DNA of 62,373 bases, the filler included, from Anaerolineae bacterium (GTDB lineage: Bacteria > Chloroflexota > Anaerolineae > Epilineales > Epilineaceae): NCBI GenBank assembly GCA_029262755.1. It is 7 parts of 7 records of this genome, joined end to end, with 100 filler letters (N's around TTAATTAATTAA, not from the genome) between each part and the next. Parts side by side here need not be neighbours in the genome. Positions count along the whole stretch, not along the records: positions 1 to 11,735 come from JAJCYU010000242.1; positions 11,836 to 20,741 come from JAJCYU010000244.1; positions 20,842 to 35,866 come from JAJCYU010000246.1; positions 35,967 to 39,781 come from JAJCYU010000247.1; positions 39,882 to 42,498 come from JAJCYU010000248.1; positions 42,599 to 47,798 come from JAJCYU010000249.1; positions 47,899 to 62,373 come from JAJCYU010000250.1. The stretch is one strand, 5' to 3'. The notes beneath the pieces were generated by a model that saw only the letters and a program-made list of their open reading frames with translations, had not been told where the DNA came from and searched no databases. Below are positions 2,298 to 59,800 of this stretch, piece by piece. Every line of letters begins with the position of its first letter. Position 1 is the stretch's first letter. A program made the translations under genes and the position numbers.

Positions 2298-3335
2298 GTG
2301 ATGCGCTGCAAACTCCCCCGCGCTCGTCACTCTCGCAGCCGAAGGTCCGCGTGGTCCGACGGCTTGCGCGCCGTCCGCGCTGGCACCCGTCCTTGGCGGG
2401 CCGTAGTGGCCGTGCTCGTCCTCGTCGCGGGCCTCGCGCCCTTCGCTGTCCTGCGACTGCGCGCTGCGCACGCGCAGGATGCGCCCCGCGCGTTGGTCTA
2501 CCTCCCCTTGATCCTGCGCGGCGAGACGCGCGACCAGCTCTATGCACCACAGGCCCTTGCGCCCGCCGTGGCAACACGTCGCGCCGCAACGGCGACCGAG
2601 GACGTTCCACCAAGCGCAACGCCCGGACCCGCATCACCTACGAGCGTTCCGACCGATGCGGCCAGCCCCACCTCCGCTGCTACAAGCGAACCGGCCACCC
2701 CGACGGTGCCCCCCACGCCGACGTCGACACCCGAACCAACTGCCACGGCGACCCCTGACGCGGTATGCTCCAACGTGCTCTACAACGGAGACTTCGAGGA
2801 AGGCGCTTCGCGCTGGGCCATTGACTCTACCTACCGCGGTCGGTCCCTTTCCGGCGTGATCCTGCATCCGGAGCCCAACATCATCCCGCGACCGGTGGAC
2901 GGCGAGTGGCTGGCCCAGCTCGGCGGTGGGCGCGACGGCGGCTACGACGAGCTATCGCAACCACGTGCGCCCGATCGCCCGTGGTCGACCGTTCCGGAGG
3001 ACCAGATGGTTTCCGCGACGCTCAACTTCTCCTTCGCGGTGTTCACGGAACTCATCCGCGATCGGCGTCCGGATGACACCCTGAGCTTCCTGCTCTACGA
3101 CGTCTCGACGGAACGCGAGTACCCGATCGAGAACGCCGTGGTCTCGGAAGAATCGGGGCCCGACCTGGAGTGGCGGGCGTTCAGCGTCGATGTCACGCGG
3201 CAGATGACCAGCAGCCGCGGTGAGAAGCTGGGCCTCAAGATCCGCTCGCAGATGCGCGAGGTGGCCGACGGGCGAGGCACGAATCACTTCATCGACGCGA
3301 TCTCGCTCGAGGTGTGCACCAAGCCGGCGCCCTAG
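2298..3335 (+). CDS. Exported protein: signal peptide, VYLPLILR motif, Pro/Thr linker, CBM-like domain
   Basis: Hydrophobic segment ending AHA-Q; LVYLPLILRG; PTATP linker; CSNVLYNGDFEEG typical of CBM4/9-like jelly-roll starts. Confidence 0.75.
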   Translation: MMRCKLPRARHSRSRRSAWSDGLRAVRAGTRPWRAVVAVLVLVAGLAPFAVLRLRAAHAQDAPRALVYLPLILRGETRDQLYAPQALAPAVATRRAATATEDVPPSATPGPASPTSVPTDAASPTSAATSEPATPTVPPTPTSTPEPTATATPDAVCSNVLYNGDFEEGASRWAIDSTYRGRSLSGVILHPEPNIIPRPVDGEWLAQLGGGRDGGYDELSQPRAPDRPWSTVPEDQMVSATLNFSFAVFTELIRDRRPDDTLSFLLYDVSTEREYPIENAVVSEESGPDLEWRAFSVDVTRQMTSSRGEKLGLKIRSQMREVADGRGTNHFIDAISLEVCTKPAP

Positions 3336-3625
3336 CGGCCGGACCGTTTGTCGAGGCCGTGCCGGGCGGGTAGCCGAATCCACCCGGTTGCGTAAGTTCT
3401 GCGTTGCATGCGCTACGCGCCGCACGGCCGCCCAGCGCTGCCGCGCGCGTGACGCCCCGCCCGCTGTCCCCACTGTCCTGGTGGTGACGCGGGGCGGCCG
3501 CACCGCCATGGTTCCTCTGCCGCAGCCGCTGCCGTTGACCTACGCCGGGTCGCGTCGGGTCCACAGGTGGCACAAGCTCGCAGGGCCGTGTCCGTGCGTC
3601 GGTCCTTCTACAGGAGAGGAACTCC

Positions 3626-6600
3626 ATGCGCCACTCTGCCAGCAGTGCAGATTTTCAAGCGCGTGCGCAACGCCGAACTGTAGCCGCGTCACGATCGGCG
3701 CGGTTCAACGCATGCTCCCGCGTTCCATCCCTGCGGCGGGCCGCGTATCCGACCCGTCGAGCGTCGGACCGCGTCGGAACCGGTAGCGGATGGTGGCGCG
3801 GTGACGTGGTCGTCGCTGCGTTGCTCATCGCTATGGTCGTTGCCGGCCTCACAGCGTCTGCAATCGCGCATGGACCCGATCGCGCAACCCAACGCGCAGG
3901 CGCGTTCCGGACGCGGCGGGTTGCCGCGCAAGGAGCACAGGCTGCGCTCTTCTTGCCGATCGCGCTACGGGTCGACACGACGGGGGCGGATTCCGATTGG
4001 CAGGCCCATCCCGGGCCCGCGCCGCGTGCAACCGACAATCCATCGACGCCTGGTGCATCAGCCACGGCCGCGCCCACCGCGTTGCCGACCGTGGGGCCAG
4101 GCGGCTCCGTCGGCGCGCGTCATTTCAAGAGCGGCCCGGTGCAGGTCGATGCCGCGGGTGATACGGTCTGGATAGCCCAATCTCACGCCGACGCGGTCGC
4201 ACGCTACCGCGTGGCCGACGGAAGTGTTGCCCACTTTGCGCTCGGCGCCGCCGTAGACGGCACGGCGGCGGGGCGAGACGTGCCGCTCGGTCTTGCCGTG
4301 AGCGAGGACGGGGACAGCGTCTGGGTCGCGGCGCACGATAGCGACCGTGTCTACGTGCTCGATGCACGAGACGGTCGTGTGCGCCGCGTTCTGTCGATGC
4401 CGTGGGGCAGCGGCCCATACAGCGTGGCGCTGCAACCCCCGGACGAAGGCGGCGCGCAGCGCTGGGCCTTGGTCACGCTACACCGGAGTGACCAGGTGGC
4501 CGCGATCGACACGATCTCCTTCGACATGACCCTTCTTGGGCCGATGTTTCGCACGCCGCATGCAATCGCGTGGGCGGACGACGGTGCGAGCGCATGGGTG
4601 ACCCACTTGCTCACCGGCGGCGAGCATCCGCGCCTGTCACGCATCGACGTGGCGGATGGGCCGCCCCGCGTGACGACGCGGCTTCGGCTCTTCGCGGCCA
4701 CGCCGCGCGACAGTGGCGCCATGGGTGAGGCCGACTCCGGTCGCAACACTGCGGAGGGCGGCTACCTCAACTGGCGCGGCCATCCCGCCCAGTGGCCCGG
4801 CGAAGGCCCGCGGCGCCTCTGGCTGCCGACCCAATATCACAACATGCACACAGACCAATTCACCCCCGACTCTACGATTCAGGCCAGCCTGCGCCAGGTA
4901 GACCTCGACGACCATCGTCTCCTCGTGGACGAAAAGATCGTGCTCAGCGCCGCGCACGTGCACGATCCCAAGGGCGGTGACAAGAATCCGGCCTGGATGG
5001 GCTACGGCTGGGATGTGCCTATCTCCGGCCTCGTCGACCTCGCGTTCGCGCGCCTGCGCGGTCGTTGGTTTGCCCTGGTCGTTGGCGAGCAAAGCGACAA
5101 CGTGGTGCTCCTGCCCGCCGATAGCGCCATGTGGCGTTCGCGCACGGATCCCGGCGCGCCGGGTTTGCCGGCGGTGGCCATCGGCAACCGTCCGATGGGT
5201 GTCGCGGTCTCGCCGATACGAGCCGAAGCCTATGCCTACAACAGCGTGTCCGCAGACCTCTCGGTGCTAGACCTTCAAGATCCGAGCGCGCCGAAGGAAC
5301 GGGCTCGCATCGGCCTCGCGCCTCCGCACCGCGCAGACCTTCTCGCGGATCCGAAGCTGCGACGAGGAGCGGCCCTATTCTTCACCAGTGCCGACCCACG
5401 GTTGAGCGACAATGGCAAGGTGGCCTGTGCATCCTGCCATCTCAACGCCGAAACCGATGCTCGCCACTGGGCCTTCGAGCGTCTTCCGGACGGTACGAAC
5501 GGACAGGCCCACGGCCCGCGCCGCACGATCGATCTTCGCGGCTTCGGCCTTGGGCTACGCGCGAGCTCCGGCAATCGCGATCCGGCTACCGGTTTCGGCT
5601 TCGTGCATCGCTCAGGCGACCGTGACGAAGTCCAGGACTTTGAGTGGACCACTCGCAGTCCGATCATGGGCGGGACCGGCTTCCTCGGTGCGGACGCCCA
5701 ACCGGAGCTGGGTGCCCCCAACGCCGGACGCGACGAAGATCTGGATGCGATCGCCGCCTTCGTGGAAGCGCTACCCCCACTCGGGCGCAGCCCGCACCGG
5801 GAGCCGGATGGCCGGCTGTCGCGCGCCGCCGTCCGCGGAGCGACCTTCTTTCTCGGCACCGGTGGCCGACCGGCCGATGCGCAGTGCTCCTCTTGTCACG
5901 TACCTGAGACCGACTTTCAAGACTTCGGATTCCACGACGTCGGGGCAACGCGATTGCCGGGCGAAGCGGAATTGGGCGCGGATCGACGTGCGGCCTGCCG
6001 GTGGTGCGTCGGGACGCTCTCGTTGCGCGGCGCATTCGGCCATGCACCCTGGGAAGGCGCATACGGCTACATTGGAACGATGTTCGAGTTGATCGCCGAT
6101 TTCGACCGAGCCGATCGCCCGCGTGCGCACGGCGATGTCTCCGGGCTAACCGGCCGCCAACGCGCGGACCTCGCAGCCTTCGTCTCTTCCATCGACGGTT
6201 CGCTCGATGCAGCCGCGGTGCGCGCGCTGCGCGACACGCAGCCGCCACGCATACTCGAGGTTCGGCCCGTCGGGCCGCGGCGCATCCTCGTGACCTTCGA
6301 CGAGAGCGTGAACGGCACGAGCGCGGCGGACCCTGCGGCGTGGAGCCTTCGTGTGCGCGGCACGGGAGCCGCGATCGCGATCGAAGGCGCGGAACTCGAC
6401 CAGGCTCTCGGGGATCGGCTGCGTTTGGACACGGGGATCATGGAGGCCGGTGGCGCGTATCAGCTGGCACCGATCCTCCCGATCCGAGATGTGGCCGGCA
6501 ACGCAAGCGGAAATGCCTCGAATGCGTTGGACCCCAGTGACCCAGCCCTGGCGTTCGCCTTCGACCTTCCGGAGGTGATCACCCTATCCCTGGGCGCGAG

Positions 6601-7258
6601 CGGCTACGAAGACCTTCGCATCGGCGTGCACGACGCCGCGCTCGTGGGGCCGGGTCTCGCGACGTGGAGCCACGACTCGCTCTGGATCGGCACCCAACAG
6701 GCGGTGCCGATTCCCGGCTTCGTCCGCTTCGACTGGCGCGATGCCTTCGTCGCGGCGACCGGCGTCGAAGACGCGGATCGCATCCTCGACGTCCGGCTTG
6801 TGCTCCAGCCACTACATGGCGATCTTCAGCGCATGGAGTTGCGCCGCGTCCTCCAGCCGTGGTCGGACCCCGCGGTGGGCGGTGACTGGAACAGCAGCGC
6901 AACGGGCGCCCCGACATGGCGGGACCACAGCCACCCCAACGGCCGATGGAACCAGGCGGGCGCAAGCGCGCTCGGCGGAACGGGCGCGCGCGCGGCCGAC
7001 TACGACGGCGCGTTCGATCTGGCGGCGGCCGTCGACTCGATCGCATCCATGCGCTCGATCACCGAGCCGGCCGTCTTCGAGGGCGAGGCATTGGGGTCCG
7101 CATATCGCTTCTGGTTCGAGCATCCGGAGTACGACTACGGTCATGCCGTTCGCGTGCTGCCCAATCCGCCGTTTCAGCCGGCCGTGAAGTTCCACAACCA
7201 CGAATCGGACCGCAGGCAGCGCGGTCCGCAACTGCTGATCACCTACCGGCTCCCTTGA
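3626..7258 (+). CDS. Exported YVTN beta-propeller plus di-haem cytochrome c (CCP/MauG-like) plus Ig-like plus DNRLRE-like domain protein
   Basis: Propeller repeats ([22 protein letters not shown]); two CxxCH motifs (CASCH 5426-5440, CSSCH 5885-5899); RGAALF and RGATFF before the haems; [11 protein letters not shown]g-like start; [19 protein letters not shown]-terminal domain; start uncertain. Confidence 0.8.
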
Positions 7259-7279
7259 TTCCGCACGCTCCGTGCACGA

Positions 7280-8219: not shown

Positions 8220-8221
8220 AC

Positions 8222-8788: not shown

Positions 8789-9537
8789 CCCCGGCCATCG
8801 AGGTATATCGCGAGGAGCGCGCCGACCGCTGCGCGGCGGGCGTTCGCTGTCCGCGCTGCGAGCGGGTGCTGCCGGTCGAATGGGACGAAGACGATCGGCG
8901 CCAGGTGGAGCGCGGCGATACAGGGCAACGCATCGGGCGTTGCGAGGCCTGCTTCCTCCCGCCCGGGGAAGGTGCGGGCGGCGAAGATCTCGGTGGCTAT
9001 GTCTACGTGACCCTCGAGCCGGACGGGAGCTTGGCGGTCGGGACGTCCATGGACGACTATCGCGAAGGCCTCGACATGCTCGTCACGGGCGAAGCGCGCT
9101 GCGGCTGCTGTCAGGTAACGATCGTGCGCTGCGGCTGGTGTGCCACGCCCGTAGCAACGCGCCATGCGCCGCTCGAAACGTTGGATGAGTACGTCGAGTG
9201 CGGGTACTGCGTGCATTGCGATCGCATCGTCGGCATCGACGTGTATGCGCGCGATAACGAGATGGTGCGCGAATTCGTGGATCGCGTGGCCTCGCCGGAC
9301 GAGGTCGACGCAGAGCGATGGGCGGCCTGGCGCGACGCGATGCAGGCGGAACTGGGCGACGTGGACCGCTTGCGCTCCCCGTGTGTTCGGTTGCCGCGCG
9401 AAGATCTGGACCTGTTGGAACTCGCGGCCGACGACGTCGACTTCGCCGGATCCCCCGCCGGCATGACGTGGGAGGCGTGGCTGGAAACCTTCGGTCGCGA
9501 CCTGCCGCCCGGCATTGCCCGACCCGGCGCAGGCTAG
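8785..9537 (+). CDS. Cys-rich hypothetical metal-binding protein
   Basis: GTGA overlap with sufE; 14 Cys including CPRC, CEAC, CGCC, CGWC, CGYCVHC; acidic C-terminus. Confidence 0.65.
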   Translation: MTPAIEVYREERADRCAAGVRCPRCERVLPVEWDEDDRRQVERGDTGQRIGRCEACFLPPGEGAGGEDLGGYVYVTLEPDGSLAVGTSMDDYREGLDMLVTGEARCGCCQVTIVRCGWCATPVATRHAPLETLDEYVECGYCVHCDRIVGIDVYARDNEMVREFVDRVASPDEVDAERWAAWRDAMQAELGDVDRLRSPCVRLPREDLDLLELAADDVDFAGSPAGMTWEAWLETFGRDLPPGIARPGAG

Positions 9538-9650: not shown

Positions 9651-10762
9651 ATGCGGTTCCCGCGCCTTGTCCGTCCGGGCTCGCCCCGCCTGGTTGTCGC
9701 TTTGCTCGGCGCCTGCCTATTGGTGCTCCTCACAGGCGCCCCGGCGCCTGCCGCGGCGGATACCGTAGCCATCCTCGATGACTTCGAGCGCATGGACTGG
9801 CCCGATCCCCTACTCTGGCCACCCACAGGGCTGACGGGCTGGGCGCCCTCGGCCTGTCAGGCGCGGCGGGGCAACCGCGCCTTGCGCGCCTTCGCCGCAA
9901 CGCCGCCCGACGTCGCCGAACCCGACTGCGATGCGCCGGTGGCGGCCGGTGCGATTAGCTCGGGTCTGCTCTTGCTGGATTTGCGCTCCGCGAGCGAAGC
10001 GAACCTGCTCGAACTGCACTTCGACCTCTGGCTTCGCCTGTCAGCCGGTACTTCGGCTGCACCTGCGGGTCTCTTTCTCTACGTGCGCACACCGGATGCA
10101 GATGCCGGCGCCCCGCAGGGTACAACCAAGCGCATCGCGATCTTCGGCGCGACCGGTGACGCAGGACGATGGGTGTTCCCGGGTCGTAGCCTGGATCTGC
10201 GCAATCTGATCGACCTCAATGATCCAGGTGAGGTCTACGATCTGCGTGGCAAACGCTGGTGGCTCGAATGGATCGCGTTGGCGCCGGCCGGGGCTCCGCC
10301 CGGCGGTGGCGTCTTCTTGGACGACGTCGCGCTCGTCTGGGAGCCGGACGAAGTCGTCCCGACCCCGACGCGCCGACCGCCCCCAGCACCGACGGCCACG
10401 CCGACCGCGACGCACACTCCGACCGTGACCGCGACGCCAACCGTGACGCCTGTGCCCACAAAGGAGCCGACGGTCGCCTTTCCCCGCATCTACCTGCCGA
10501 TCACGCGCCATGATCCCCAACCAACCCCGACCGCAACTCCGGAACGGACCGAGACGCCGGAACCGGTGGAAACCAATACGCCGGGACCGTCGCCGACGGC
10601 TACCGCGAGCCGCACGCCCGTTCCGTCCGCAACCCCGACGCCGGTTCGAAGGTATCTGCCGCAGTTGGACATGTTCCGTTCCGAGGAGGCCTATCCCGGT
10701 CCCTCCGGCGTCGCCAACGCGCCGACACGCAGCCGCCGTGTGCTAGAATGGCGCCGGTTCGC

Positions 10763-10772: not shown

Positions 10773-10838
<66 letters not shown>

Positions 10839-11875: not shown

Positions 11876-12838
11876 ATGGCCGTGAACCGGACCTTGTCGA
11901 AGGGCTCGGCCGCTTCGGCGACACGGAACGATTCGCGCCGCCCTACGGTGCGTCTCGTGCCGACGCGCGCCCGAACACGCGCGTTGCCCATCCTCGGTGC
12001 GACGTTGATCGCATTGGCCGCGGTGTGGGGGCTCGCCACGAAGCGGGCCGCGCCGCGTGAGCCTGCGGAGAACGTGTCCGTGGCGGACGGCGCGCGCGCC
12101 GCGCTGGCCGTACCGCACGGGCTCGCGCTTGGCGACGGGTTCCGGGTGGCCTACTGGACGAGCACGGCGCGGCGGGAGCAGCGTCCCGGCGGCGCCGATG
12201 CGACGGAGCCCGTGCGTCGCGAGTGGCGCTACACGCTCCGCGCCGAAGAGCCGGTTGATGGACGGACGCGGCAAACGTTCGTGGCGCGCCTGCTCGCCGG
12301 CTCGCCGGGCGAGCGGGAGGCGAATCCGGCCGGCACGATCACGCTTACCTTGGACGGCGACACGCGGGCGCTGTGGACGCTGGTCGAGGCGATGCCCGGG
12401 CCGGGTGGCGGTGATGCCGCAGCACGGCGCGTGGAGCAAGCGAACCATTACGCGGTCGGCGGACCGGAGGCCATCTTGCACGCGCCGCGCGCTCATCTGG
12501 CGTGGATCGCCGACTTGCCGCGCTTGCCCGCGACGCCGTCGACGGCCGGTGAGCGCCTCGAGCGCGTGATCGCCCGGGCGGACGGTCTCCTACCTGCGTT
12601 CGAGCAGAGCGTGGTTGCCACCGGGGACGGCGGATGGGAGGTCACGCTCTGGCGGCACGATCCGGACTCGGGTTTGGAACTGCGTTCATGGCAGCATTGG
12701 CCGCCCGGCGCCCTGTGGTGGTCGGAGGCGCGTGTGACGCTCGGAGATACGCTGTTGGTGGAAGGCCGCGTCCTAGGCTTGGAGCATCCGCGGACGGCCT
12801 GGCTGCCGATGCTCCTGGCCGACGGTGCGTTGCGCTGA
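11876..12838 (+). CDS. Hypothetical exported or membrane-anchored protein with C-terminal AWLPMLL motif
   Basis: N-terminal hydrophobic segment; ends PRTAWLPMLLADGALR. Confidence 0.6.
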   Translation: MAVNRTLSKGSAASATRNDSRRPTVRLVPTRARTRALPILGATLIALAAVWGLATKRAAPREPAENVSVADGARAALAVPHGLALGDGFRVAYWTSTARREQRPGGADATEPVRREWRYTLRAEEPVDGRTRQTFVARLLAGSPGEREANPAGTITLTLDGDTRALWTLVEAMPGPGGGDAAARRVEQANHYAVGGPEAILHAPRAHLAWIADLPRLPATPSTAGERLERVIARADGLLPAFEQSVVATGDGGWEVTLWRHDPDSGLELRSWQHWPPGALWWSEARVTLGDTLLVEGRVLGLEHPRTAWLPMLLADGALR

Positions 12839-22320: not shown

Positions 22321-24819
22321 ATGGCAAACGTCAAGCAAGGGCCATGGCACGGAGCCGATCCCGTCCGCGCACGAAAACCACGCTGGCGGGGCGCCGGTCT
22401 CCTCGCCTTCGCCCTCCTGATTGCCGCCGCCGGACAACCGCGCCCCCAGGTCCTGGCCCAGCGCGCCACGCCGCCCGCGACGCGCCCGACCCCAACGCCG
22501 CGGCCCGACCTCGATGCGAGCATGATGGCGACGTGGCGTCCGGAGTACACGTCCTGGCAACCGCTCCCGGGTGACGAGACGCCGATTACCTTGGCGGCGG
22601 AGCCGGGCGGGCAAGGCTTGTGGATGGCCACCGGCGCGACGGTCGCCCGGCTCTTTGACGGCGTATGGAGCACGCCGGAGCAGCCCACGGATGCCGATCA
22701 TATCTACGCCATGACGGTGACCGACCGATCCGTGTGGGGCGTCGGCTGGAGCGGTGGAGCGTGGCGCCGGGGCAGCAGCGGCTGGACGGACGTCGCGTCC
22801 GGCACCGTCGGCGACCTATACGCCATGGCCCATGGGTCCGACGGCCTGGTCTGGGCGGCAGGCTTCGATTACGAGACGGCGAGCGGCGTGATCGTACGGT
22901 GGTCGGAGGACGCGGCCGGCGTCGATCCGGCGGCCACCACCCTGTGGTCGGGCGATGCGCTCGTCGCCCTGCAGCTCTACTCCGTGGCGGTTGATTCCAC
23001 GGGCGGTACCTGGGCCGGCGGCTGTCGCATCAACGGCTGGGAGGAAGAGGCGTGGCAACCGGTGATCTTGCGCTTGGATCCGGACGGTTCCTGGTCCGAG
23101 CATGCTCTGCCGTTGTCTACAGGCTGCGTGTACGATCTTGCTTTCGCCGCGGAGGGTCCTGGTTGGGCGGCCGCCGGTACCGACATCCTGCGTTATGACA
23201 ATGCCGCCTGGGTCGCCGAAGGCCTCGTTCCGCCGAGTGCCGACCCCGACGCCCAGCCGCCCGTGCCCGAGGGCGTCGAATGGGTCCGCGTGGCCGCATC
23301 GGGCAGCCGCCTCGGCAACGACGGCCCCCTGCACGGCGCGTGGGCCGTGGCCGGCGTGCCAACCTGGCGTGGCTACATCAACGGGCAGACGCCGTGGCGC
23401 TTCGACGGCAGCGGGTGGTCGCCCGCCGCGGTCGACTACCGCGGGTTGCCCGCGGCCGGCCGCGATGTCGAGACCGAGATCGAGCCCCGTTCCTTCATGG
23501 CCCTGGCCGGCGACGGCGACCGAGCCTGGTCGGTCAACCGCACGACGACCGGCGCCGGCGACGCTGCCATGGCCTTCGCGACCATCATGGAATTGGACGA
23601 GGACGCGGATGCCGCGGTGCTCTTCCACCCCTTGCTGCTGCAGCCGATCAGCGTTGCGATCACCGAGAACCCGGAGGGCGAGAGTCGCGTCTTCGTTGCG
23701 GGCCGGCACGGCTCGACGCCGATCGATCGTAGCGGCGATGTCGGCTGGCTCTCCGATCCGGCGTTTCGCTTCGTGCCGGCGCGGCGCACGATGCAACCCA
23801 CCCGGTCCCACATCGATCTAGCGGCCGCCGACCGGGGTTGGCAGCTTCGGACCGCGGGACCCTTCACGAACTCCGTCGCCGCCGCGCACCGGTGGGACGG
23901 CGAACGGTGGCGGGAGCTAGCCACACCGCGCGGCTTGCGCCAGCTACGCACGCTGCCGGACGGCGGGGCTTGGGGACGCGTCGCACAACCGGGCGGCAAA
24001 CGCTACACGGGCCAGCTCGTCGCCTGGCAGGCGGACGGCTGGCAGCCAGTGCCCGGCGCTCCCGAGCCGGCGGAAGCAACGCCCCTCTGTGACCGCATCG
24101 GAAAGAACATTTCGGCGGTTGCCTGGGCCAGACAGGATTGCGACGTGCCGCGTGCGCCCTTTGATGCCGTCACGCTTCGCGGCAACGGCACACGCGACAA
24201 GCCGGCCGTCACGGTCGGTTGGCTGGGCGGCGCGGATCACCGGATGTACCGCTGGGACGGCACCGACTTTCAGGCCGCGGGCCAGCCCCTTGCAGGTCCT
24301 GTGCTGGACTTGCAGCTTGCTCCGCAGGGCGGCGGCTGGGCGATCATGCACGACGAGCAAGCCGATCCGCCCACCGACCGGCTGATGCGCTTGCAGGGCG
24401 AACGCAACTGGATCGCCGTCGATCAGGTCGTGCGCCGTCACCCACAGCTGCGCTTCAACGTGGTGTCGGTGGAATGGCAAGAACTCGCCATGATCGATGC
24501 GCGCGAGGTGTGGCTGCGCGGACGCATCTTCGCCCCGCGCCTCGGCCGCGGCGACCGCGTCTTGGTCCACCTGCGCGGCAACACCGTCGAGGTCTTTCCC
24601 TTGGCGTGTTCCGTGGTGGGCATGGCCGCGGCCCGCGTGCCGGGTGGATCCGACCTCTGGCTGGTCGGCGGCGTGGACCCGGAAGGCTGCCGGATGGATC
24701 GCTTCCCCATCCCCGTCTACGAACAGGGCGATGCCGTGGCGGGCAACCGAGAGCGCCTGAGCCGCCTGCGCATCCGCGACGTCGCGGGCCGCGTGGCCCT
24801 GCCCTGGCTGGGACGGTAA
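22321..24819 (+). CDS. Large exported Trp/Gly-rich beta-propeller-like protein with C-terminal VALPWLGR
   Basis: Signal peptide; many repeats such as VWGVG, W-R-[FW]-DG..W; terminal RVALPWLGR. Confidence 0.7.
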   Translation: MANVKQGPWHGADPVRARKPRWRGAGLLAFALLIAAAGQPRPQVLAQRATPPATRPTPTPRPDLDASMMATWRPEYTSWQPLPGDETPITLAAEPGGQGLWMATGATVARLFDGVWSTPEQPTDADHIYAMTVTDRSVWGVGWSGGAWRRGSSGWTDVASGTVGDLYAMAHGSDGLVWAAGFDYETASGVIVRWSEDAAGVDPAATTLWSGDALVALQLYSVAVDSTGGTWAGGCRINGWEEEAWQPVILRLDPDGSWSEHALPLSTGCVYDLAFAAEGPGWAAAGTDILRYDNAAWVAEGLVPPSADPDAQPPVPEGVEWVRVAASGSRLGNDGPLHGAWAVAGVPTWRGYINGQTPWRFDGSGWSPAAVDYRGLPAAGRDVETEIEPRSFMALAGDGDRAWSVNRTTTGAGDAAMAFATIMELDEDADAAVLFHPLLLQPISVAITENPEGESRVFVAGRHGSTPIDRSGDVGWLSDPAFRFVPARRTMQPTRSHIDLAAADRGWQLRTAGPFTNSVAAAHRWDGERWRELATPRGLRQLRTLPDGGAWGRVAQPGGKRYTGQLVAWQADGWQPVPGAPEPAEATPLCDRIGKNISAVAWARQDCDVPRAPFDAVTLRGNGTRDKPAVTVGWLGGADHRMYRWDGTDFQAAGQPLAGPVLDLQLAPQGGGWAIMHDEQADPPTDRLMRLQGERNWIAVDQVVRRHPQLRFNVVSVEWQELAMIDAREVWLRGRIFAPRLGRGDRVLVHLRGNTVEVFPLACSVVGMAAARVPGGSDLWLVGGVDPEGCRMDRFPIPVYEQGDAVAGNRERLSRLRIRDVAGRVALPWLGR

Positions 24820-26285: not shown

Positions 26286-28789
26286 CGCGCGGTCTCCGAA
26301 TCGCGCGTGGGGCCGCGGCGGCGCTGACCGTCGTCGCGGCCCTCGCCGGCGGCCCGCCGCGCAGCGTTGTGGCTGGGCGAACGAACTCCAGCGGCAAGCC
26401 AGAGGTCGCGCAGGCGGTAATCGCACCGCCCGGTCCCGTCCTCACGCTCGCGCACACGCCGTCCGCGAGCACCCCCGCCGAGAGCGGTCGCCCACCGTGG
26501 GCCGACCCCGACGCGCTGCGGCTGCGCGTCGACGAGGCCGGCGTCGTCGCCGTGACCGGTGCGATGCTCCGCAACGCGGGTTGGGCGCTCGACGTCGTGG
26601 AAGCGGCTCGCGTGCGGCTGTCGCGTCAAGGGCGGCCGATACCGTACGCCATCCTTCGGGATGGTGTCGCGACGGCGGACGGCACCCTGCGCGACACGGA
26701 CCGGCTCGTGTTCGTGGCGGCAGCGCCGGACTCGACCTATGCGCCATTCGCGATCTACTGGCTACAGCCGGCTGCAGAACCGCAGCGCTTCGCCGCGCTC
26801 AGCATCGCTCCTCCGCCACCCGGCTCCCCTGTTCCCGCGACCGGAACTCGCGTGCGCGCAGAAATGCACCTTGAGCAGGACGATTACTTCGTGGGCGCCT
26901 TCCGGCCCCCGGGCGGCGATCGCTGGCTGTGGGGCGCCCCCCTGTGGGCGGGGCAGCAACGCTCGATCTCGTTGCCGAGCACACCGCCCGTGCATCCCGA
27001 AGGCAGCGCCACGCTGGCGCTGCGACTCGTCGGCGTCACGAACGATCCGCAGCGGAGCCCGGACCATCATCCGCGGCTCGCGTTGGCGGACGTCGAACGC
27101 GACGCGCCGGCCTTCGAGGGACTCTCTGCGATCACGGTCACCATGACCGTGGACGCAAACCGCTGGCGGGAAGCGGCATCGGGTGAAGGCTTGCGGCTGC
27201 ACGGCGCCGACCGGGACACGAGCCCGGACCGCGGCACGGTGCTGGACGGCATTCAGGTCGATCAACTGGCCCTCGCGTGGGACGCCGAGGCCACAGCGCG
27301 GGACGCAAACGGGCAGCCCGGAACGCAGCTCTCGTTTCTCGTTCTTTCGCGCGATCCGACCATCGTTACCGGGCTTGCCGCACCGCGAATTCACGCCGCG
27401 GCATTCCCAACCGGCGACGCATCGCCCATGCTGTGGACGGTGGAGGACGCCGCAGGCGACCTGGGCGACCCCCGTGACCCCGGCGACCCCGGCGCTGGAC
27501 ATTGGATCCACCTCCCCGCCGCCCTGCCGGGGACGCGCGTCGTCGTGTGGACGGCGGGCGCGGAATCCGCTCCGGCTGCCATCACGCGCAACCGGGCGAG
27601 CGATCTCAGCGGCGCCGGACGCGATGGTCCGTGGCCGGGCGATCGGCGCGGCGGTGCGGAGTGGATCGTCGTGGCGGACGCGCGTCTCCATGGAGCGCTG
27701 GCGCCGCTTGTGGCACACCGCCGTAGCGCCGGTTTGTCTACGGCGCTGGTCGACGTACAGGACGTGTGGGACGAAGGATCGCACGGCGTGCCCGATCCGG
27801 CCGCGCTGTCCGCGTTGCTGCTGCGCGCCCGAGCGCGGTGGGATCCGGCGCCACGTTACGTGCTGCTCGTCGGCGAGTCGAACCTCGATCACCGCGGCGG
27901 GGACGCGCGTCGCCGCGGACAGCCGGGCCCGCCCGACTTGCTACCGGCTTGGACGCTGGAACGCGCCGACGGCTCTGCGGCCACGAGCGACCTGCCCTAC
28001 GTGGATCACAACGGCGATGGAGCGCCGGAGATCGCCATCGGACGCCTGCCGGGCGCGGACGAGGGCGAAGTGGCGGCCGTCGTGGCACGCGTGCTCGCCC
28101 ACGAAGGCCGGGCGATCGCCGCTGCGCCCGCGCCGCGCGCCGTGCTGCTCGACGACGGGAGCAACCCTGCCCTCGCCGAAGCCACCGCGCGTTTGGCGGC
28201 CGTGCTCGCTCCCCGGCTGCGCGTCGCGCGTCACGACGGCGCCGCGATGCGGGCGGCCGGCGACGACCTGCCGGGAGTCGTGCGCGCCGAGCTGGCCGCC
28301 GGCGCGCTCGTCGTGGCCTATGTGGGGCATGGCAACGCGGACACCTGGGCACCGTGGCCGGGAGGCGGGCGCCTGCTACATGCGCGTGATCTGGCCGATA
28401 CTCCCAACGGAGCGGAGGCGACCGACCGCGGCCTGCTGGTCGCGGCGACCTGCCTCAACGGCTTCTTCGACCATCCCGTCACCGGCGGATCCCTCGCCGA
28501 ACGCTGGCTGCTGGATCCCGGAGGCGGCGTGGCGGCCTGGGCGCCGTCCGGAGCGGCGCGGCTACCGGCCCAGGCCGCGCTCCTCGAAGCCCTCGGCAGT
28601 GAGCTGGCGCTCGCTCCAGGCCGTCCCGTCGGGGACGTGATCGCGCGCGCGCAGCGGCGCGTGATAGCGGGCAGGCCGGACCGGCGTGAGGCGGCGCAGA
28701 GCATGGTCTTGCTCGCGGACCCTGCCATGCCGCTGTGGCCGGGCGCCGCCCGCCGGCCGCTCCACCTGCCGCGGCTCGGCCGCCCGTGA
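26282..28789 (+). CDS. Peptidase family C25 (gingipain/PorU-like cysteine peptidase)
   Basis: LVDVQDVWDE, YVLLVGE, SDLPY, PEIAIGRLP, catalytic-type YVGHG (His 28328) and ATCLNGFF (Cys 28451), SLAERWL, LLADP; N-terminal LRVDEAGVVAVT propeptide-like region; ends LHLPRLGRP. Confidence 0.88.
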   Translation: MTRGLRIARGAAAALTVVAALAGGPPRSVVAGRTNSSGKPEVAQAVIAPPGPVLTLAHTPSASTPAESGRPPWADPDALRLRVDEAGVVAVTGAMLRNAGWALDVVEAARVRLSRQGRPIPYAILRDGVATADGTLRDTDRLVFVAAAPDSTYAPFAIYWLQPAAEPQRFAALSIAPPPPGSPVPATGTRVRAEMHLEQDDYFVGAFRPPGGDRWLWGAPLWAGQQRSISLPSTPPVHPEGSATLALRLVGVTNDPQRSPDHHPRLALADVERDAPAFEGLSAITVTMTVDANRWREAASGEGLRLHGADRDTSPDRGTVLDGIQVDQLALAWDAEATARDANGQPGTQLSFLVLSRDPTIVTGLAAPRIHAAAFPTGDASPMLWTVEDAAGDLGDPRDPGDPGAGHWIHLPAALPGTRVVVWTAGAESAPAAITRNRASDLSGAGRDGPWPGDRRGGAEWIVVADARLHGALAPLVAHRRSAGLSTALVDVQDVWDEGSHGVPDPAALSALLLRARARWDPAPRYVLLVGESNLDHRGGDARRRGQPGPPDLLPAWTLERADGSAATSDLPYVDHNGDGAPEIAIGRLPGADEGEVAAVVARVLAHEGRAIAAAPAPRAVLLDDGSNPALAEATARLAAVLAPRLRVARHDGAAMRAAGDDLPGVVRAELAAGALVVAYVGHGNADTWAPWPGGGRLLHARDLADTPNGAEATDRGLLVAATCLNGFFDHPVTGGSLAERWLLDPGGGVAAWAPSGAARLPAQAALLEALGSELALAPGRPVGDVIARAQRRVIAGRPDRREAAQSMVLLADPAMPLWPGAARRPLHLPRLGRP

Positions 28790-53867: not shown

Positions 53868-55583
53868 CTACGGCCACCGCTGCCCCCAATCATGCCTCCC
53901 CCCCGGGCACGGAATCAGCTGCGCCAGCCGCCGATACAGCGCGGCCAACGCATCCGCCTCCGGTGCGGCGAAGTAGCGGTCCGGGCTGCCGGCCAGGGCC
54001 TCGAGCAGGGCGGGATTGACGTCCGCGCCCAGGCCGATGGCGTAGAGCGCGATCCCGGCGGATCGGACTCGCGAGGCGGCGGCCAGCGTGCCGGCCTCGT
54101 CGTCGAAGCTGGGGCGGCCGTCGGTGAGCAGCAGGATCACCGGGCGGTTCCGTGGCAGGCGCGCTGGGCTCGTCAGGACGTCACGCGCGAGGTCGAGCCC
54201 GAGGTCGATGCGTGTCCCGGCCCCGCGTGGCAGCGTGGCCAGGGCGGCGCGCACGTCGGCCCGGCTGGAGCCGAGCGGGCTGAGCACCGAGGCTTCGTTG
54301 TGGAAACTCAGGATCGCGAGCTGATCGCGATCCCCACTCCGGCCCAGGCGAAGTTGGTCGCTGAAGGCGCCGGCTGCCTGGGACGCGGCGTCGCGCTTGC
54401 TCAGGCCGCCTGCCCTGGTCGGGCCGTCCATGCTGGTCGAGAGGTCCAGCAGCAGGACCACGTCGAGCGTTTCGGTCTTGGGATCGCAGCGTTCATGGAG
54501 GAGCACGGGCAGGTAGATGGGGCCCGTGACGAGTACCTTGGGCACGGGGAAACGCAGCGTGTCGTCGTTGCCGAGTCCGTCGCGGTAGTCGGCGCCGGCG
54601 CGGACGTTGGTGGGGTGCGCGCCCGTCGCCAGCGGCTCGAGCTGATAGCTCATCGTCAGGCCGGGCTCGGGGACCTGGCTGAAGGTCCACGTGAGCAAGC
54701 GCCGGCCGGCATCCCACGCCGCGGCCGGCTCTGCGGAGCCGACGAGGTAACGCATGTTGGCCGGCACTTCGTCCTCGATCGTGATCGTCTCGAAGAGCAC
54801 GCCGGCTTCGATGCGGCCGGCGATCTGGAGGTAGATGTCCGCCAGCTGACCGCCGTTGATGTCACCGTAGTAGTTGGCGGGTGCGCTGACGATGCGGCGC
54901 AGCACCGTGTCATCTGCGTCATCACCGAGGCCGATGGCGTAGGTGTCGATGCCCGCCGCGCGCACGGCGGCGATGACGGCGTCGAGCTCGCTGATGGGGG
55001 GCCTGAAGCCGGAGTGATTCCCGTCGGTCATGAAGACGATCACGGGCGAGGCCTCGGGGCGGGCGGAGGAACCGGTGACCATGCGCCGTGCCGCCTCGAG
55101 CGAGTCGACGAGGTTCGTGCCACGATCCAGCTGAATGCTCGCGATGGCCTGCCGCAGCGCGTCCTTGTCCGTGCTCAGGTCCAGCACGTCGTCCACCGAA
55201 TCGTCGAAGGCAACGATGCCGACCTGCACGAGGCTGGTGTCCATCTCGTCCACGAAGGCGGTGGCGGCGGCCTTGGCATCGGCCAGCTTGTCGTCCTGCC
55301 CCATCGAGCTGGAGCGGTCGATGGCGAGCACCACGTCCGCCTGCTGCTCGCGCGTCGGGCAGGTACCCGCGACGCGGAGCGTCACCGTGACCTGTTCCCC
55401 GAGACGGATCTGTGCGGGCGCCGCGCTCTTGAAGGGTGCCGCGCTGCAGATGTCGGACTGAGCGAGTGCCACCGAGCTTGCGCTCCGCGGCAGCAGGCCG
55501 GCGTAGAGGGCAACGGCCACGCTCGACCCGAGGGCCATCCCAAGCAGGCCGAAGAGGAGTGGGCGGGAGAAGTACTGGCGCAT
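53868..55583 (-). CDS. Exported tandem-VWA protein with internal IYLPVLL motif
   Basis: Signal peptide; two MIDAS motifs (DRSSSM, DLSTSM), TDG, YAIGLG; DUF11-like linker; GGAG RBS. Confidence 0.85.
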   Translation of the reverse strand: MRQYFSRPLLFGLLGMALGSSVAVALYAGLLPRSASSVALAQSDICSAAPFKSAAPAQIRLGEQVTVTLRVAGTCPTREQQADVVLAIDRSSSMGQDDKLADAKAAATAFVDEMDTSLVQVGIVAFDDSVDDVLDLSTDKDALRQAIASIQLDRGTNLVDSLEAARRMVTGSSARPEASPVIVFMTDGNHSGFRPPISELDAVIAAVRAAGIDTYAIGLGDDADDTVLRRIVSAPANYYGDINGGQLADIYLQIAGRIEAGVLFETITIEDEVPANMRYLVGSAEPAAAWDAGRRLLTWTFSQVPEPGLTMSYQLEPLATGAHPTNVRAGADYRDGLGNDDTLRFPVPKVLVTGPIYLPVLLHERCDPKTETLDVVLLLDLSTSMDGPTRAGGLSKRDAASQAAGAFSDQLRLGRSGDRDQLAILSFHNEASVLSPLGSSRADVRAALATLPRGAGTRIDLGLDLARDVLTSPARLPRNRPVILLLTDGRPSFDDEAGTLAAASRVRSAGIALYAIGLGADVNPALLEALAGSPDRYFAAPEADALAALYRRLAQLIPCPGGRHDWGQRWP

Positions 55584-55847
55584 GGTCAAGCTCCAGACGG
55601 GGTGCTGGGGGGCTGTCTTGGGAGTAACAACACCGGCACCCGGTATCACGTCATCCCTTTGCGCCAACGTCCGTCCGCGCACATTTCCGACATCGCGTCG
55701 AGGACGATCGGCAACGGTACGGTCACGGCTTCCAAGGCCAGGCGCCGGAAGAGCTGGACTTCCCGCGTTAAACATTCGCTCGAAGGACCGACAGCGATGA
55801 CGCAGCTCGCCGTCGTTCGCAACGGAGTTCGCGAGCACGCGCGATCG

Positions 55848-56414: not shown

Positions 56415-56875
56415 GGCGTAAGCCTCCCTACATCTGTTGTTGGCAGCGTGGCGGAGGAGGAGCAGCCGCATTGCCTGGCCTCCCGATCCGGGTCGAGATG
56501 GACAGCCGTCACGCATAGGCTTTGGGAGCGGCCGGAGGCCGTCCGCAAGGGTGAACCGTGAGCCGCCAACGGTTGTGGGTAAAGAATAGCTTGCCGGGCG
56601 CCGAGGGCTCGTCGGGCACCCATGTCGCCAACCGAGGGCGACTCTGGGCAATCTGGGTATTCGCCGGGTCAACACGGCTTGCGTTCCCTCTGGCCGGTTC
56701 ATTGCGTCGAGCATACAAGGGTGGCAGGGTAGAACGGCTCGCTGGCCCGCGGAGAATCGGCTTGGCTCGGCGATCGAGTCCGGACCGCCCGTCGGAAGAG
56801 GCGCGATCCCAACGGAATGGGACCGCGAATTGGGACCACGGGCGGCGCGTGGCTGCCGCCGGAGGACGGTGCGAG

Positions 56876-59800
56876 ATGGGTCGAAACATCGCCGCTACAG
56901 GCTTCGCCACGGTCACGCTCTGCGTTGTCATCGCCGGGCTCTTGTTCGCCGCGGCCCGCGGACGTGCGGGCCATTCGACGCCGTCGGACCTGCCTCGCTC
57001 CTCCGCGGAACGCGTCGCCGCCCCCGCGGCCGTCGACACCTTCCACGCGGATCAGGACACCTTCGTCGATAGCGCGAATCCAAGCTCGCGCTTCGGCGGG
57101 CGTCCGGATCTGCGCGTCGGGAGCTACGGTCCGCGCGCGATGACCGACACGTGGCGCACGCTGCTGCGCTTCTCGGACCTGGCCGACGGGCTGCCGAAGG
57201 GCGCGATCGTCACGACCGCCACCCTTCGCCTGCGACACGAAGGATCTCCGGGGCGCCTCACCATTCTCGCGCGGCGTGCGGAGCAGGAATGGGATGAAAC
57301 GAAGGTCACGTGGGACACGCAGCCTCCCGATGTCGCCCCCGAGACGGGTCAGGTGGTAGACGATGTGCCAGGGGTGGTGGCATGGGACGTCACCGAGCAC
57401 GTGCGGGGCTGGGCCGCGGACCTCTGGCCGGACCACGGCTTCGTGCTGCGCGCCGACGACGAGGCGCTTCTCGTTGCGAAGCTCTTCCGCTCGCGAGACG
57501 TAGGCGGCCGCGGCACCCCGACCCCTGCACCCGCGGAGCTCGAGGTGCATTGGCTGCCCGGCCCCACCCAGACGGCCACGAGCACAGCGAGTCGCCGGAC
57601 CGCCACGCCGACCCGTAGGGCCACGGCCACGGCGACCGAGAAGGCGACCGAGACCCCGAACCTACGCACACGGACGCCCAGTGCCACGGCCACTCCTACG
57701 CGGCCAACGGTCACGGCGACCGGCACGTCGCCCGTCGCCCGGAGGACGCCGACAGCCACGCCGACAGCCACGCCCACCCGCACCCCGGCCGTGCCGAGCG
57801 CGACGCCACCGACGCGCACCGCGACCCCTGGACGTGTCGAGCCGACCGTCGGTCCGACGGCAACGCTGACGCGACCCTCACAGCCGACGCGCACGATGAC
57901 GCCGACCAGCACCGCGACGCCGACGCGCAGGGTGACCCCCTCGCGCACCGCGCCGCCGACACGCACGTCCACGCCGCCGCCGGGACACCGGACGACGACG
58001 CCGGAACCGACGCCTTCGCCCGGACGGGCGGCCAGCGCCACGCCGGGCATCGCCACGCCGGTCGTGCATCTGCCCTTCGTGTGGAATGGCCCCGCCGGTC
58101 CGCCGCCTACCCCGGGTAGCTCCTACGCGTCCCCCACGCCGCAGCATGGCCAGCCTAGCCCGACGCGCCCGCCCGGTCACCCCACCGAGACGGCGACGCC
58201 GGGGCAGGGCAAGCCGTCGGCCACGCTGCCGCCAGGGCCGGTCTCGCGCCTCTTTGCGATGCGCGGCGAGCACAGAATCGGCTGCCGGACGCAACGCCTC
58301 AACTATGGCTCGGAGTCGCTGCTCGACTGCGAAGAGGGCTTCACCATCGACCAATTCGCCAGACGTGAGGAGGGAACGACCTTCACCCGCATCCCCAACA
58401 CCGCGACGAAGTTTGTCGTGCCGGAGGGCTCCGTGCCGATACGCGGCGGGGGCATCGTCGACGTGGTGATCCTCGTTACAGCCTTCGTGTGGCCGGCCGA
58501 GCTGACGGACGATGACCCGCCCGTGCGGGTGCGGGCCGTGGTCGACGGGCTCATCGCGGCGCCGGGGGACATCGTCTGGGCGGACGCGGACTCCGGGCAG
58601 GAGTATCACGCGCAGAGCTTCCTCTTCACCCAGCGCATCGGTCCCGGCATCCACACCGTGGAGCTCGAATGGACCGCGGAGGGCTCCGCGGCCCGCATCC
58701 GCGATGCCTCCGTGCTCGTGCTGGCGGACATCCCTCCGGAGACAGGGCACCTGCTCGCGGCGCGGTCGTCCCCCGGCAACGCGCCGGTGGCGATGGACAG
58801 CGGAGCTTGGGAAGCCGTGCCGCTAGCCCAGCTGGACTTCGAGACGGTCGAGGACGGCCCGGCGACGCTGTGGTTCTCTGCGGCGCTGGAGCAGACGGCG
58901 GGCGACTTCGTGATGCTCCGCGCAATCGTCGACGAGGCGGCTGTGGCGGTCGAACCGTCCGAGATCCCATTGACGGCCCGCCTCGACGACGCCGAGGCGC
59001 GTGCGGTTGCCTTCGTCGTGCCTGAACTCCCTGCCGGCGACCACTCGGTGCGCTTCGAGTGGCGGGGCAGCATCACCGACGAGGTGGCGCAGGCCACGGT
59101 GCGCGGATGGTCGGCGGCGGCGATCGTCGGGCCGCCAATAGGCGCGGCGCTGCCGGTGGGGCTGCACGTGGAGCCCCAGACGGGGCCGCCGTTCACGGCC
59201 CAATCCGAGGACGGCTGGGAGGCGATTCCCGGCTTGGAGGTCAGCCTCGACCTCGAAGAGGGATTCACGGAGGCAGCCCTGATCTTCAGTGGCGGCGTGA
59301 CGGGTCGCGACCCGGCGTGGGTCGCCCCGCGGATCAATGGCGTGACGCAAGTCGACCAGGCCACCGTGCTGCATCACGCCGTGCTGACCTGCCCGGCGGC
59401 GGATCCTTTGTGTGATTCGCCGACGGTCCACGATGCCGGCGCACGCAGCTACGCCTTCAAGCTCCCGGCCCGCCCACCTTCCGACGACCCGACGACGATC
59501 GGGCTGGCCGTCCGATCCTCCGAGTTCGACGACTCATACTCCACCGTGCACGACGCCACGCTCACGTTGCTGCGCCAACCGTGGTTGGGCCCTGACCTCG
59601 GTCATGGCGCCAATATCGGCGCCGCGTCGTCGCAACGGCATGCGCCCGTGGAGCCCGCACGCGGCGAGCGGCCGCTCCTGCTGATCGTGATCGATCCCGA
59701 ACGGGTAAAGCAACCGGTGGCCGACGCCGCCTTCATGGACGAGGTCGAGGCCTTGGCCTTCGGGGACCATCCGGCCGCGGTTGGCTACTTGGACGCGATG

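Follow-up and report, generated by a model that had tools for sequence, protein, structure and literature searches.

Ten peptides with a short Leu-Pro core lie in frame in nine long open reading frames (ORFs; GC3 0.73-0.85) on contigs C242, C244, C246 and C250 of the window, i.e. the whole 62,373-nucleotide stretch of an Anaerolineae genome analysed here (Table 1). All ten peptides listed in the first-pass annotation were recovered in place and on the right strand. Nine of them score 12.4-24.4 bits against a matrix trained on the genome; the copy at 10650, which had been counted as a tenth instance, is probably not a tag, and the other nine are upheld. The domains recognised by Pfam and NCBIfam (MauG-like cytochrome c, C25, VWA, M6, and DNRLRE) match the cargo labels given before. 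Four of the nine carriers are without any match in whole-protein scans of these databases, and the matches of a fifth, ORF 2298, are weak and far below the cut-offs.

Table 1. YLP-box copies in the window and the proposed receptor outside it
Feature	Position	Strand	Context
YLP-box VYLPLILRG	2496..2522	+	ORF 2298-3335; 17.5 bits; ~8 residues past likely signal-peptidase site; Pro/Thr stalk after
YLP-box LFLPIALRV	3947..3973	+	mature N-terminus of propeller/di-haem cytochrome c protein 3626-7258; 12.4 bits
YLP-box IYLPITRHD	10488..10514	+	ORF 9318-10772, flanked by two Pro/Thr stalks; 21.4 bits
RYLPQLDMF	10650..10676	+	second candidate in ORF 9318-10772; < 3.8 bits; unsupported as tag
YLP-box AWLPMLLAD	12797..12823	+	C-terminal, ORF 11876-12838; 18.0 bits
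YLP-box VALPWLGR	24793..24816	+	C-terminal, ORF 22321-24819; 16.8 bits
YLP-box LHLPRLGRP	28760..28786	+	C-terminal, C25 peptidase 26282-28789; 15.6 bits; Peptidase_C25 E 1e-47
YLP-box IYLPFAYRR	28851..28877	-	C-terminal, ORF 28845-30815, behind long Pro/Thr stalk; 24.4 bits; used in complex prediction
YLP-box IYLPVLLHE	54492..54518	-	internal, between two VWA domains of ORF 53868-55838; 22.4 bits; Cys after tag
YLP-box VHLPFVWNG	58064..58090	+	internal, within Pro/Thr stalk of DNRLRE/M6 protein 56558-61126; 16.6 bits
Proposed receptor, outside window	G000:C190:1-654; G000:C212:3-848	-; +	halves of one gene on two contigs

Catalogued status and genome-wide use of the YLP-box

The motif had been put forward as undescribed, but NCBIfam already has two entries for it, NF050076 (sort_motif_YLP) and NF053834 (ultrashort_CTERM), under the name 'YLP-box putative sorting motif'. 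The copy at 2496 scores above the threshold of NF053834 (14.0 bits, cut-off 10) and below that of NF050076 (13.9 bits, cut-off 15), and it is N-terminal despite the family name ultrashort_CTERM. The other nine window copies matched neither model, and among ten further copies on other contigs one passed both, with two more matching NF050076 below its cut-off. These matches are missed by whole-protein scans and revealed by 25-residue pieces. Consensus, type of carrier and phylum agree with the NCBIfam entry; the difference is that the copies here number at least 317 and are looser (Y replaced by W, H or F; Trp at +3), that 40% lie elsewhere than at the C-terminus, and that the two models catch 10-14. 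The family description viewed at NCBIfam names no partner and no mechanism. Likewise, the earlier remark that no mechanism has been characterised is borne out by a literature search, with subscription journals largely outside its scope, in which no description of a YLP tag or of a strand-docking mechanism in Chloroflexota was found. A profile of 97 local tags gave nothing meaningful against the PDB (one match, E 0.82). The tag is already catalogued, and the new addition is a candidate docking partner whose binding is predicted.

The proteome scan suggested in the first-pass annotation was carried out on 3600 gene calls with a scoring matrix seeded from 170 C-terminal aromatic-L-P matches only and a threshold of 13 bits. 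It yielded 317 copies spread over 313 genes, close to one for each exported protein (317-319 matches, as against 13 when the proteins are reversed and 21 when they are shuffled locally). Aromatic-L-P is enriched 4.8-fold in the final 25 residues of proteins, with no enrichment of aromatic-L-A or aromatic-L-G. The consensus is alike in all three position classes and reads I46/V21/L17, Y43/F18/W15/H11, L89, P99, and R49 at +6 (in percent), the L and P values being inflated by a scan anchored on L or P. Carriers make up 171 of 689 signal-peptide-like proteins versus 64 of 1617 proteins without signal or transmembrane (TM) segment (odds ratio 8, p 6e-47), where the signal call rests on a hydropathy heuristic; in many of the 64 the start appears to be mis-called.

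The copies are distributed over C-termini (190), N-termini (37), and internal sites (90), so that 127 are not C-terminal; most C-terminal tags stop 7-10 residues past the aromatic residue, and Cys follows the tag in 45 of the 90 internal copies. N- and C-terminal copies exclude each other (0/116 versus 24/367, p 0.002), as do C-terminal and internal ones (2/116 versus 42/367, p 7e-4). The tag avoids TM- and lipid-anchored proteins: it is absent from all 24 exported proteins that have a TM helix at the C-terminus and present on 5 of 87 lipoprotein-like proteins, compared with 162 of 491 others. The initial description of a position-independent envelope tag on exported proteins that does without a TM helix agrees with these counts and with the excess among signal-like proteins. 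Its 'usually next to a Pro/Thr stalk' was too strong: a stalk adjoins 155 of 317 copies, far above the 3% background and approximately half of the total.

Among homologs, the tag is conserved and changes position. Of the 23 closest homologs of protein 3626-7258, 22 carry one tag, and the exception is a partial sequence. It is N-terminal in 8, C-terminal in 9, and internal in 5. Close homologs are named Anaerolineae, Ardenticatenales or Ardenticatenia bacterium. No tag was seen in homologs of the same protein named Verrucomicrobiae and Polarisedimenticolaceae. For the window C25 peptidase only two other homologs were found, one with a tag-like FLPFIRR end. The tag, its use once per protein and its switching between ends are read from sequences.

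A secreted ring protein as candidate receptor

The candidate receptor is a secreted protein of four ASRAH domains, here called the ring, which is widespread in Chloroflexota. At E < 1e-30 its profile recovers 2685 clusters (50% identity) and matches no NCBIfam model, and ring proteins occur in Ardenticatena maritima (ARMA_1120) and Chloroflexus (WP_298819165.1). Predicted ring domains resemble Thermotoga TM1070 (Foldseek probability 1.0, TM 0.75; VIA Z 13.9, rmsd 3.2, 114 aligned). For the whole four-domain model the top Foldseek ranks are unrelated Ig-like arrays (TM ~0.1), and only TM1070 has probability 1.0. By sequence profile the likeness to ASRAH is weak (E 0.019-0.074), with no solved relative below E 0.019; DUF5719 is a related Pfam family. 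In 33 sequences, an Asn at the end of strand 2 (N44, N148, N257, N364) and the Pro of strand 1 in each of domains 2-4 do not vary or are kept in at least 90%.

In distant rings, the first strand of domains 2-4 is tag-like (e.g. VRLPLIMRN, AYLPVIYND, LFLPFILRE), and the tag profile aligns best, if weakly, to this strand (hhalign E 0.0067, probability 5.7). Trp, which starts strand 1 in ASRAH domains, is rare in these strands. By one rule applied to 76 complete stand-alone ring representatives, strand 1 was found in domain 2 of 63, domain 3 of 60, and domain 4 of 48, versus domain 1 of a single one (~8 by eye). In 41 of the 76, fewer than 50 residues separate the start Met from the domain-1 strand-2 Asn, which leaves little or no room for a strand 1. 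Domain 1 thus appears usually to present a slot without its own first strand. Some proteins supply the strand in cis, either N-terminally (L124, L125, and giant proteins of this genome) or C-terminally (P0053, P0112, P0114, and C212:1150). Most rings stop just after the last strand of domain 4, with a tail of at most 13 residues from a conserved Asp in 111 of 123 rows.

In the giant surface proteins of this genome, the C-terminus, which bears the tag in smaller cargo proteins, is taken up by a whole self-completed ring. Twelve of the 13 best-matching giants have no tag at 13 bits, and the lone match comes from strand 1 of the module itself. Of 45 ring-domain ORFs, nine also score as tagged, one through its own strand 1, and 304 of 313 tag carriers are without a ring domain. 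On the high abundance expected of an S-layer protein the signs are mixed: the two halves of the ring core gene rank 2 and 4 in codon deviation among higher-CAI genes, but only 254 and 375 of 3135 in CAI.

Ring and tag co-occur. The ring (E < 1e-30) was found in 47 of 200 genomes of the phylum, and all 17 genomes with at least ten NF053834 matches are among these 47, with none among the other 153; related genomes are not independent in these counts, and the sampled genomes themselves contributed the 22 loci behind the broad ring profile. Counted by family, 4 of 21 ring-positive ones are tag-rich versus 0 of 33 (p 0.019). Within the host's order the ring is present in 14 of 14 genomes and at least ten NF053834 matches in 10 of 14. 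NF053834 is an insensitive measure (10 matches in this genome versus 317 tags) that also responds in 10 of 14 control genomes. The 97-tag local profile was discarded for phylogenetic profiling as too lineage-specific: most genomes had 0-7 matches, often in short frames, and at least ten were reached only in G032, G045, G067, G163, and G203. Strand-1 likeness, the missing domain-1 strand and co-occurrence are again sequence-based.

A Chloroflexus ring protein is auto-named 'CARDB domain-containing', and a 49 kDa protein of that name, possibly a ring, is second by copies in a Litorilinea surface-appendage sample. A link from Litorilinea A0A540VDF2 to the ring could not be made: no literature naming was found, the genome scan led to four other loci, and the accession is absent from 10 representatives of similar mass. 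The ring protein could already be among the Chloroflexota S-layer candidates listed in Table S2 of an S-layer survey (10.1101/2024.05.28.596244).

Predicted docking and alternative readings

Structure predictions suggest how the domain-1 slot might be filled. In the AlphaFold2 model of the ring paralog C212:1150 (pLDDT 92.9, pTM 0.92), the C-terminal LP segment forms a strand (454-464, block pLDDT 87), and since single beta-sandwich chains align over model residues ~5-465, this strand is predicted to complete domain 1 in cis. For docking in trans, we combined the window tag (28848-28943) with the ring core of the same-family genome G008 (residues 35-491), because the ring gene of this genome is split over two contigs. 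The pair scored 0.93 and the best of three controls 0.01, the controls being unrelated proteins, neither a scrambled tag nor a closed ring. Of 157 solved complexes 116 reached the score mark, as did 2 of 215 mismatched pairs, counts that hold only approximately with our own alignments, and predictors are prone to complete an open sandwich edge with a strand resembling the protein's own repeats. At least 90% of contacts are shared between the runs (partner pLDDT 58-59), in which I-Y-L-P pairs with domain-1 residues 103-107, adjoining strand 2.

We favour, with a probability of roughly 65%, a reading in which the YLP-box docks by donor strand onto an S-layer-like ring scaffold. After Sec export, the cargo would display the YLP-box, a donor beta-strand, at the end of a flexible stalk, and the tag would enter the open slot in domain 1 of the ring, whose domains 2-4 would provide their own first strand. 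The cargo would be held non-covalently on a ring protein that is probably a building block of an outer protein layer. That tag and ring bind in the cell, that the bond is permanent and that the ring serves as an S-layer is what we infer. The docking reading specifies which protein would receive the tag, where it would bind and which residues should be important.

Alternatively, the tag may derive from ASRAH strand 1 and now bind another receptor or a hydrophobic outer layer, the domain-1 slot being self-filled, neighbour-filled or empty. We regard this as unlikely, though it has points in its favour. The ring core of this family has its own V-Y-A-S-R-L-A-G in exact register with strand 1, which AlphaFold places as a strand (residues 31-35, block pLDDT 61). 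This segment was trimmed from the modelled core, being taken as the signal-peptidase site, and if it were retained, the slot would be at least weakly filled. Moreover, 30 of the 47 ring genomes are not tag-rich, and five ring-positive genomes tested have 0-3 NF053834 matches each, including G117 and G215 with open rings. Membrane-interface anchors are aromatic-rich and Arg-flanked, and the tag, rich in Trp, Tyr, and Phe and flanked by Arg, resembles them. However, L and P are strictly required while +3 and +5 accept Arg and Glu, which seems unlike simple lipid partition, and many distant rings are without an N-terminal segment able to fill the slot. Five genomes of the same class that are without a full ring gave 18 NF053834 matches, and none of these is a C-terminal tag on an exported protein.

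Another reading, which we consider improbable, is that the tag binds the ring only in passing, with the ring or a paralog escorting cargo across the inner and outer layers before releasing it. All docking evidence would fit it equally, a single copy per protein suits a routing signal, and Chloroflexota have extra envelope layers, a lattice-like protein layer included, whose identity is called unclear in PMC13319060 (2026). Against a transient contact, the tag lies beyond long stalks, as anchors do, and the giants with a self-completed ring at the tag position suggest a lasting structural role.

Of the roles named in the first-pass annotation (docking, export or cleavage), docking fits best, and cleavage clashes with the N-terminal class. 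A TM-less, LPXTG-like cleavage or transpeptidation signal read by a sortase or a C25 peptidase is highly improbable: the tag contains L-P-x-(A/T/V), some copies are LPxAG or LPxTG, and the genome has two full sortase (PF04203) matches plus one fragment and three C25-like ORFs, but these sortases have their usual clients with LPxTG/MPxAG, TM helix and basic tail (C376, four genes; C393; C223; C264), while the tag is without TM helix or basic tail (0/24) and without a Thr-Gly bond (T 11% at +4; Gly only 9% at +5, the sortase P1'), and cutting the ~30 convincing N-terminal copies would fix a stub of 5-10 residues and free the cargo.

More tentatively, and with somewhat less than even odds, donor-strand docking might amount to surface display free of enzymes and membrane anchors, in which the ring builds an outer lattice with one open slot per subunit and the giants co-assemble as whole or part-rings. 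If so, any exported protein that acquired a donor strand of nine residues, whether terminal or in a linker, would plug into the ring, and the lattice protein of Chloroflexota would be identified together with their anchoring code, with a very small, position-free docking tag. Donor-strand docking itself would be a use of donor-strand complementation that we did not find described, with many cargos, one acceptor and no polymer.

Comparison with known systems

LPXTG/sortase and PEP-CTERM systems place a short motif at the stalk end of unrelated exported proteins, together with a TM helix and basic tail. The YLP tag shares the L-P at the stalk end, but is without TM helix or basic tail, is not bound to the C-terminus and never occurs here together with a C-terminal TM helix. 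Cohesin-dockerin, SLH, and CWB2 modules display enzymes and adhesins non-covalently on a surface scaffold behind Pro/Thr stalks, and they consist of folded domains 50-70 residues long, which frequently come as triplets or use calcium. Non-covalent display would be alike, whereas the tag is a nine-residue strand and not a folded domain.

The ring has the fold, the strand-2 Asn and the arrangement in fours of the ASRAH superfamily (ASRT 2II7/2IIA, Thermotoga TM1070 1NC7; De Souza, Iyer, Aravind 2009, PMC2739507). In Chloroflexi, ASRAH domains are described there as coming in fours and always fused to amidases, with sugar binding proposed as a prediction; unlike here, the available text of that paper has no stand-alone secreted ring, missing first strand or peptide tag. 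Chaperone-usher pili and TasA/AbpX fibres (AbpX being archaeal) likewise complete an incomplete beta-sandwich with the strand of another chain, and according to the available part of 10.64898/2026.01.04.697558 every subunit there donates an N-terminal strand as well as accepting one, and a polymer results. Unlike in those fibres, hundreds of unrelated donors would here offer the strand, wherever it is accessible in the protein, to a single kind of acceptor, which itself does not donate.

The YLP-box and its carriers

All ten peptides that the first-pass annotation had read as an undescribed surface-sorting or anchoring signal are found at its coordinates. They fall in frame within nine ORFs, which belong to four of the seven spacer-joined contigs of the window. 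Genes were called with a simple coding model (3600 genes, 85% coding, with imperfect starts, in a genome that is 84% complete), and a tag matrix was trained solely on 170 C-terminal aromatic-L-P matches. At 13 bits, this matrix returned 319 matches in the 3600 gene calls; reversed proteins gave 13 and shuffled ones 21. Nine of the ten original copies were retained at 12.4-24.4 bits, while RYLPQL at 10650 scored below 3.8 bits and was excluded as a tag. The genome total is 317 copies in 313 genes; 190 copies are C-terminal, 37 are N-terminal and 90 are internal. By eye, about 30 of the N-terminal ones sit a few residues past a signal-peptidase-like site and the remainder resemble chance matches. 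The predicted preference for exported proteins was confirmed (171 of 689 signal-like proteins versus 64 of the 1617 that have neither signal nor TM), and the Pro/Thr stalk, said to be usual beside the tag, flanks 155 of 317 copies on one side against a background of 3%, i.e. about half. Close homologs bear the names Anaerolineae or Ardenticatenales bacterium.

The YLP tag is real. It had, however, already been catalogued as “YLP-box putative sorting motif-containing protein” (NCBIfam NF050076 and NF053834) and, being both real and named, is no discovery in itself; a search of the accessible literature found no paper on the YLP tag. The window copy at 2496 exceeds the NF053834 cut-off, the other nine are too diverged to match either model, and the two models detect just 10-14 sites in the host genome. 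NF053834 also matches in 10 of 14 control genomes and scores above cut-off on the final strand of L149, a histidine-kinase-like protein, so that this label by itself is unreliable.

The tag is used one time per protein: N- and C-terminal copies coincided in 0 of 116 proteins versus 24 of 367. For C-terminal copies together with internal ones, the counts are 2 of 116 versus 42 of 367. It takes the place of other anchors: none of the 24 proteins that have a TM at the C-terminus carries it, against 5 of 87 lipoprotein-like proteins and 162 of 491 others. It also switches position among close homologs of window protein 3626: in the 23 closest it is N-terminal in eight, C-terminal in nine, internal in five and missing in one partial sequence, with several copies below 13 bits accepted on position and by eye. 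The same by-eye reading of 40 more distant homologs, two of them named from other phyla, gave no tag at either end. Within the tag, L and P are required and the flanking residues variable. Since it works from either end, uncut and with a strict shape, we infer that its partner is a protein groove.

The secreted ring as candidate receptor

The search target was an ASRAH-like module without its first strand. ASRAH-type ring domains occur in 45 ORFs of the host genome. Its giant surface proteins have four domains, every one with strand 1, and a small secreted ring protein is split over contigs C190 and C212, whose ends overlap and whose upstream neighbour type is that of another genome (G013). 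Domains 2-4 of this small ring begin with strand 1 and domain 1 shows no L-P strand, a pattern also seen in 123 family members and in rings of same-order genomes. It recurs in the distant stand-alone rings of the phylum sample, apart from two that have a cis strand at the N-terminus. Among 76 library representatives (88 minus 12 truncated or unaligned), strand 1 is present in domain 2 of 63, domain 3 of 60, domain 4 of 48 and domain 1 of one (about eight by eye). A minority of rings provides the domain-1 strand in cis, from the N- or C-terminal end.

AlphaFold2 gave a confident four-domain model of one paralog (C212:1150), whose domains match TM1070 and ASRT and whose C-terminal LP segment forms a strand. 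As single sandwiches align over model residues 5-465, this strand is predicted to close the protein's own domain 1. The ring core of a same-family genome (G008) was then modelled with the C-terminal 32 residues of window protein 28845, and the complex scored 0.93 in three runs versus 0.01 for the best control, with contacts agreeing by at least 90% and a partner pLDDT of 58-59. Of 157 solved complexes, 116 reach the score mark, as do 2 of 215 mismatched pairs; these rates hold only roughly because our own alignments were used. Contacts come from tag residues 19-32 only; I-Y-L-P is paired with residues 103-107 in domain 1 of the G008 core and lies against strand 2 and domain 2. This model supports docking of the tag in domain 1, although the score may stem from the likeness of the tag to the ring protein's own repeats. 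Also counting against an open slot, the segment V-Y-A-S-R-L-A-G of this family's ring core lies in register with strand 1 and is made a strand by AlphaFold (block pLDDT 61). In related proteins A-F-A or A-Y-A takes the place of V-Y-A, and in some of these just seven residues or so follow before strand 2 begins, a spacing that favours a putative signal-peptidase site there.

We put the probability that the tag docks onto the ring by donor-strand insertion at about 0.65. The tag would be a donor strand entering the open slot of a phylum-wide secreted ring protein. This mechanism is specific and testable, and it draws jointly on the open slot, the predictions in cis and in trans, the switching of position and the co-occurrence described below.

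Distribution and variants of tag and ring

Among 200 phylum genomes, each at least 90% complete, the ring was found in 47 at E <1e-30. All 17 genomes with at least ten NF053834 matches, counts that will include some matches to strand 1 of ring domains, have the ring, and the other 153 genomes peak at seven; by family, 4 of 21 versus 0 of 33 are tag-rich (p 0.019). The ten best NF053834 matches are all C-terminal tags in ring genomes, and five genomes of the same class that lack a full ring have 18 NF053834 matches, none of them a tag. Within the order, all 14 genomes have the ring and 10 of them reach at least ten matches. Counting against docking, 30 genomes with the ring fall short of being tag-rich by NF053834. 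Five of these, with 0-3 matches, were examined; two have self-filled rings (L124, L125) and two have open rings, which count against docking.

Ring domains also occur in other arrangements. Many large proteins, in G017-G030 and among L136 and L141-L147, have just two or three ring domains (profile about 133-351 or 133-462), and anchors may come as a single strand or as two to four domains. L062 and L064, each some 100-110 residues long, end in a YLP-box; L062 is apparently signal, stalk and tag with nothing more, possibly a plug for empty slots. The ring-containing proteins L166-L190 have an N-terminal L-P-D segment, most with a separate C-terminal YLP-box behind a stalk, and could be acceptor and donor in one.

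Coordinates of tag carriers, ring proteins and neighbouring genes
Feature	Location	Strand	Observation
Window protein 3626	window 3626-7258		Tag position compared among homologs
Lamin-tail-domain protein and C25 peptidase	window 24981-28789	+	Lamin-tail protein with stalk and unannotated C-terminal domain, immediately upstream of C25 peptidase
Window protein 28845	window 28845-30815		Last 32 residues modelled with ring
Exported stalk protein	window 31059-33830	+	923 residues; very long Pro/Thr repeat stalk; C-terminal LPxTG-like word, then no TM helix; without YLP-box
Nuclease-helicase-motif protein	window 50263-53367	+	1034 residues; phospholipase-D-type nuclease motif and helicase motifs (by eye)
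VWA-containing protein	window 53868-55838	-	Member of a multi-copy family
Giant protein	G000:C209:3619-38286	-	At least 11,555 residues long; C-terminal complete four-domain ring module
Giants built like that of C209	C44, C108		4,800 residues
Ring-containing protein	G000:C71:12293-14299		Orthologs L166-L190
Locus with look-alikes	L135:1258-2604		ESM Atlas look-alikes: four-domain, TM 0.81-0.87, Actinomycetota and Acidobacteriota, DUF5719 fusions

Neighbouring genes and known anchoring systems

The unannotated domain of the lamin-tail protein recurs in four further host proteins, two of them just before another C25-like gene (C304). The window C25 peptidase matches PorU models weakly, far below cut-off, and with the lamin-tail protein it possibly forms a PorU-like enzyme-substrate pair outside a type IX system. 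The VWA-containing family has 51-76 matches per genome in 17 of 17 genomes of the host's taxonomic family and 0-7 in 14 genomes from other families of the order; in many members the tag precedes a second domain, some 200 residues long and flanked by Cys. The nuclease-helicase motif set presumably resembles restriction-like defence proteins.

A candidate S-layer role of the ring is suggested by its export, domain repetition and codon skew, and by a likeness in name and size to an abundant Litorilinea protein (putatively the same kind of protein; UniProt A0A540VDF2), which ranks second in abundance in that published sample (PMC13319060). The host sortases have ordinary LPxTG-TM clients, and a small canonical sortase system exists alongside the YLP-box (C376, C393, C223, C264; sortases on C9, C281 and C200). 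Cohesin-dockerin, SLH, CWB2 and PEP-CTERM systems, sortase specificity and signal-peptidase rules served as background for reading the tag.
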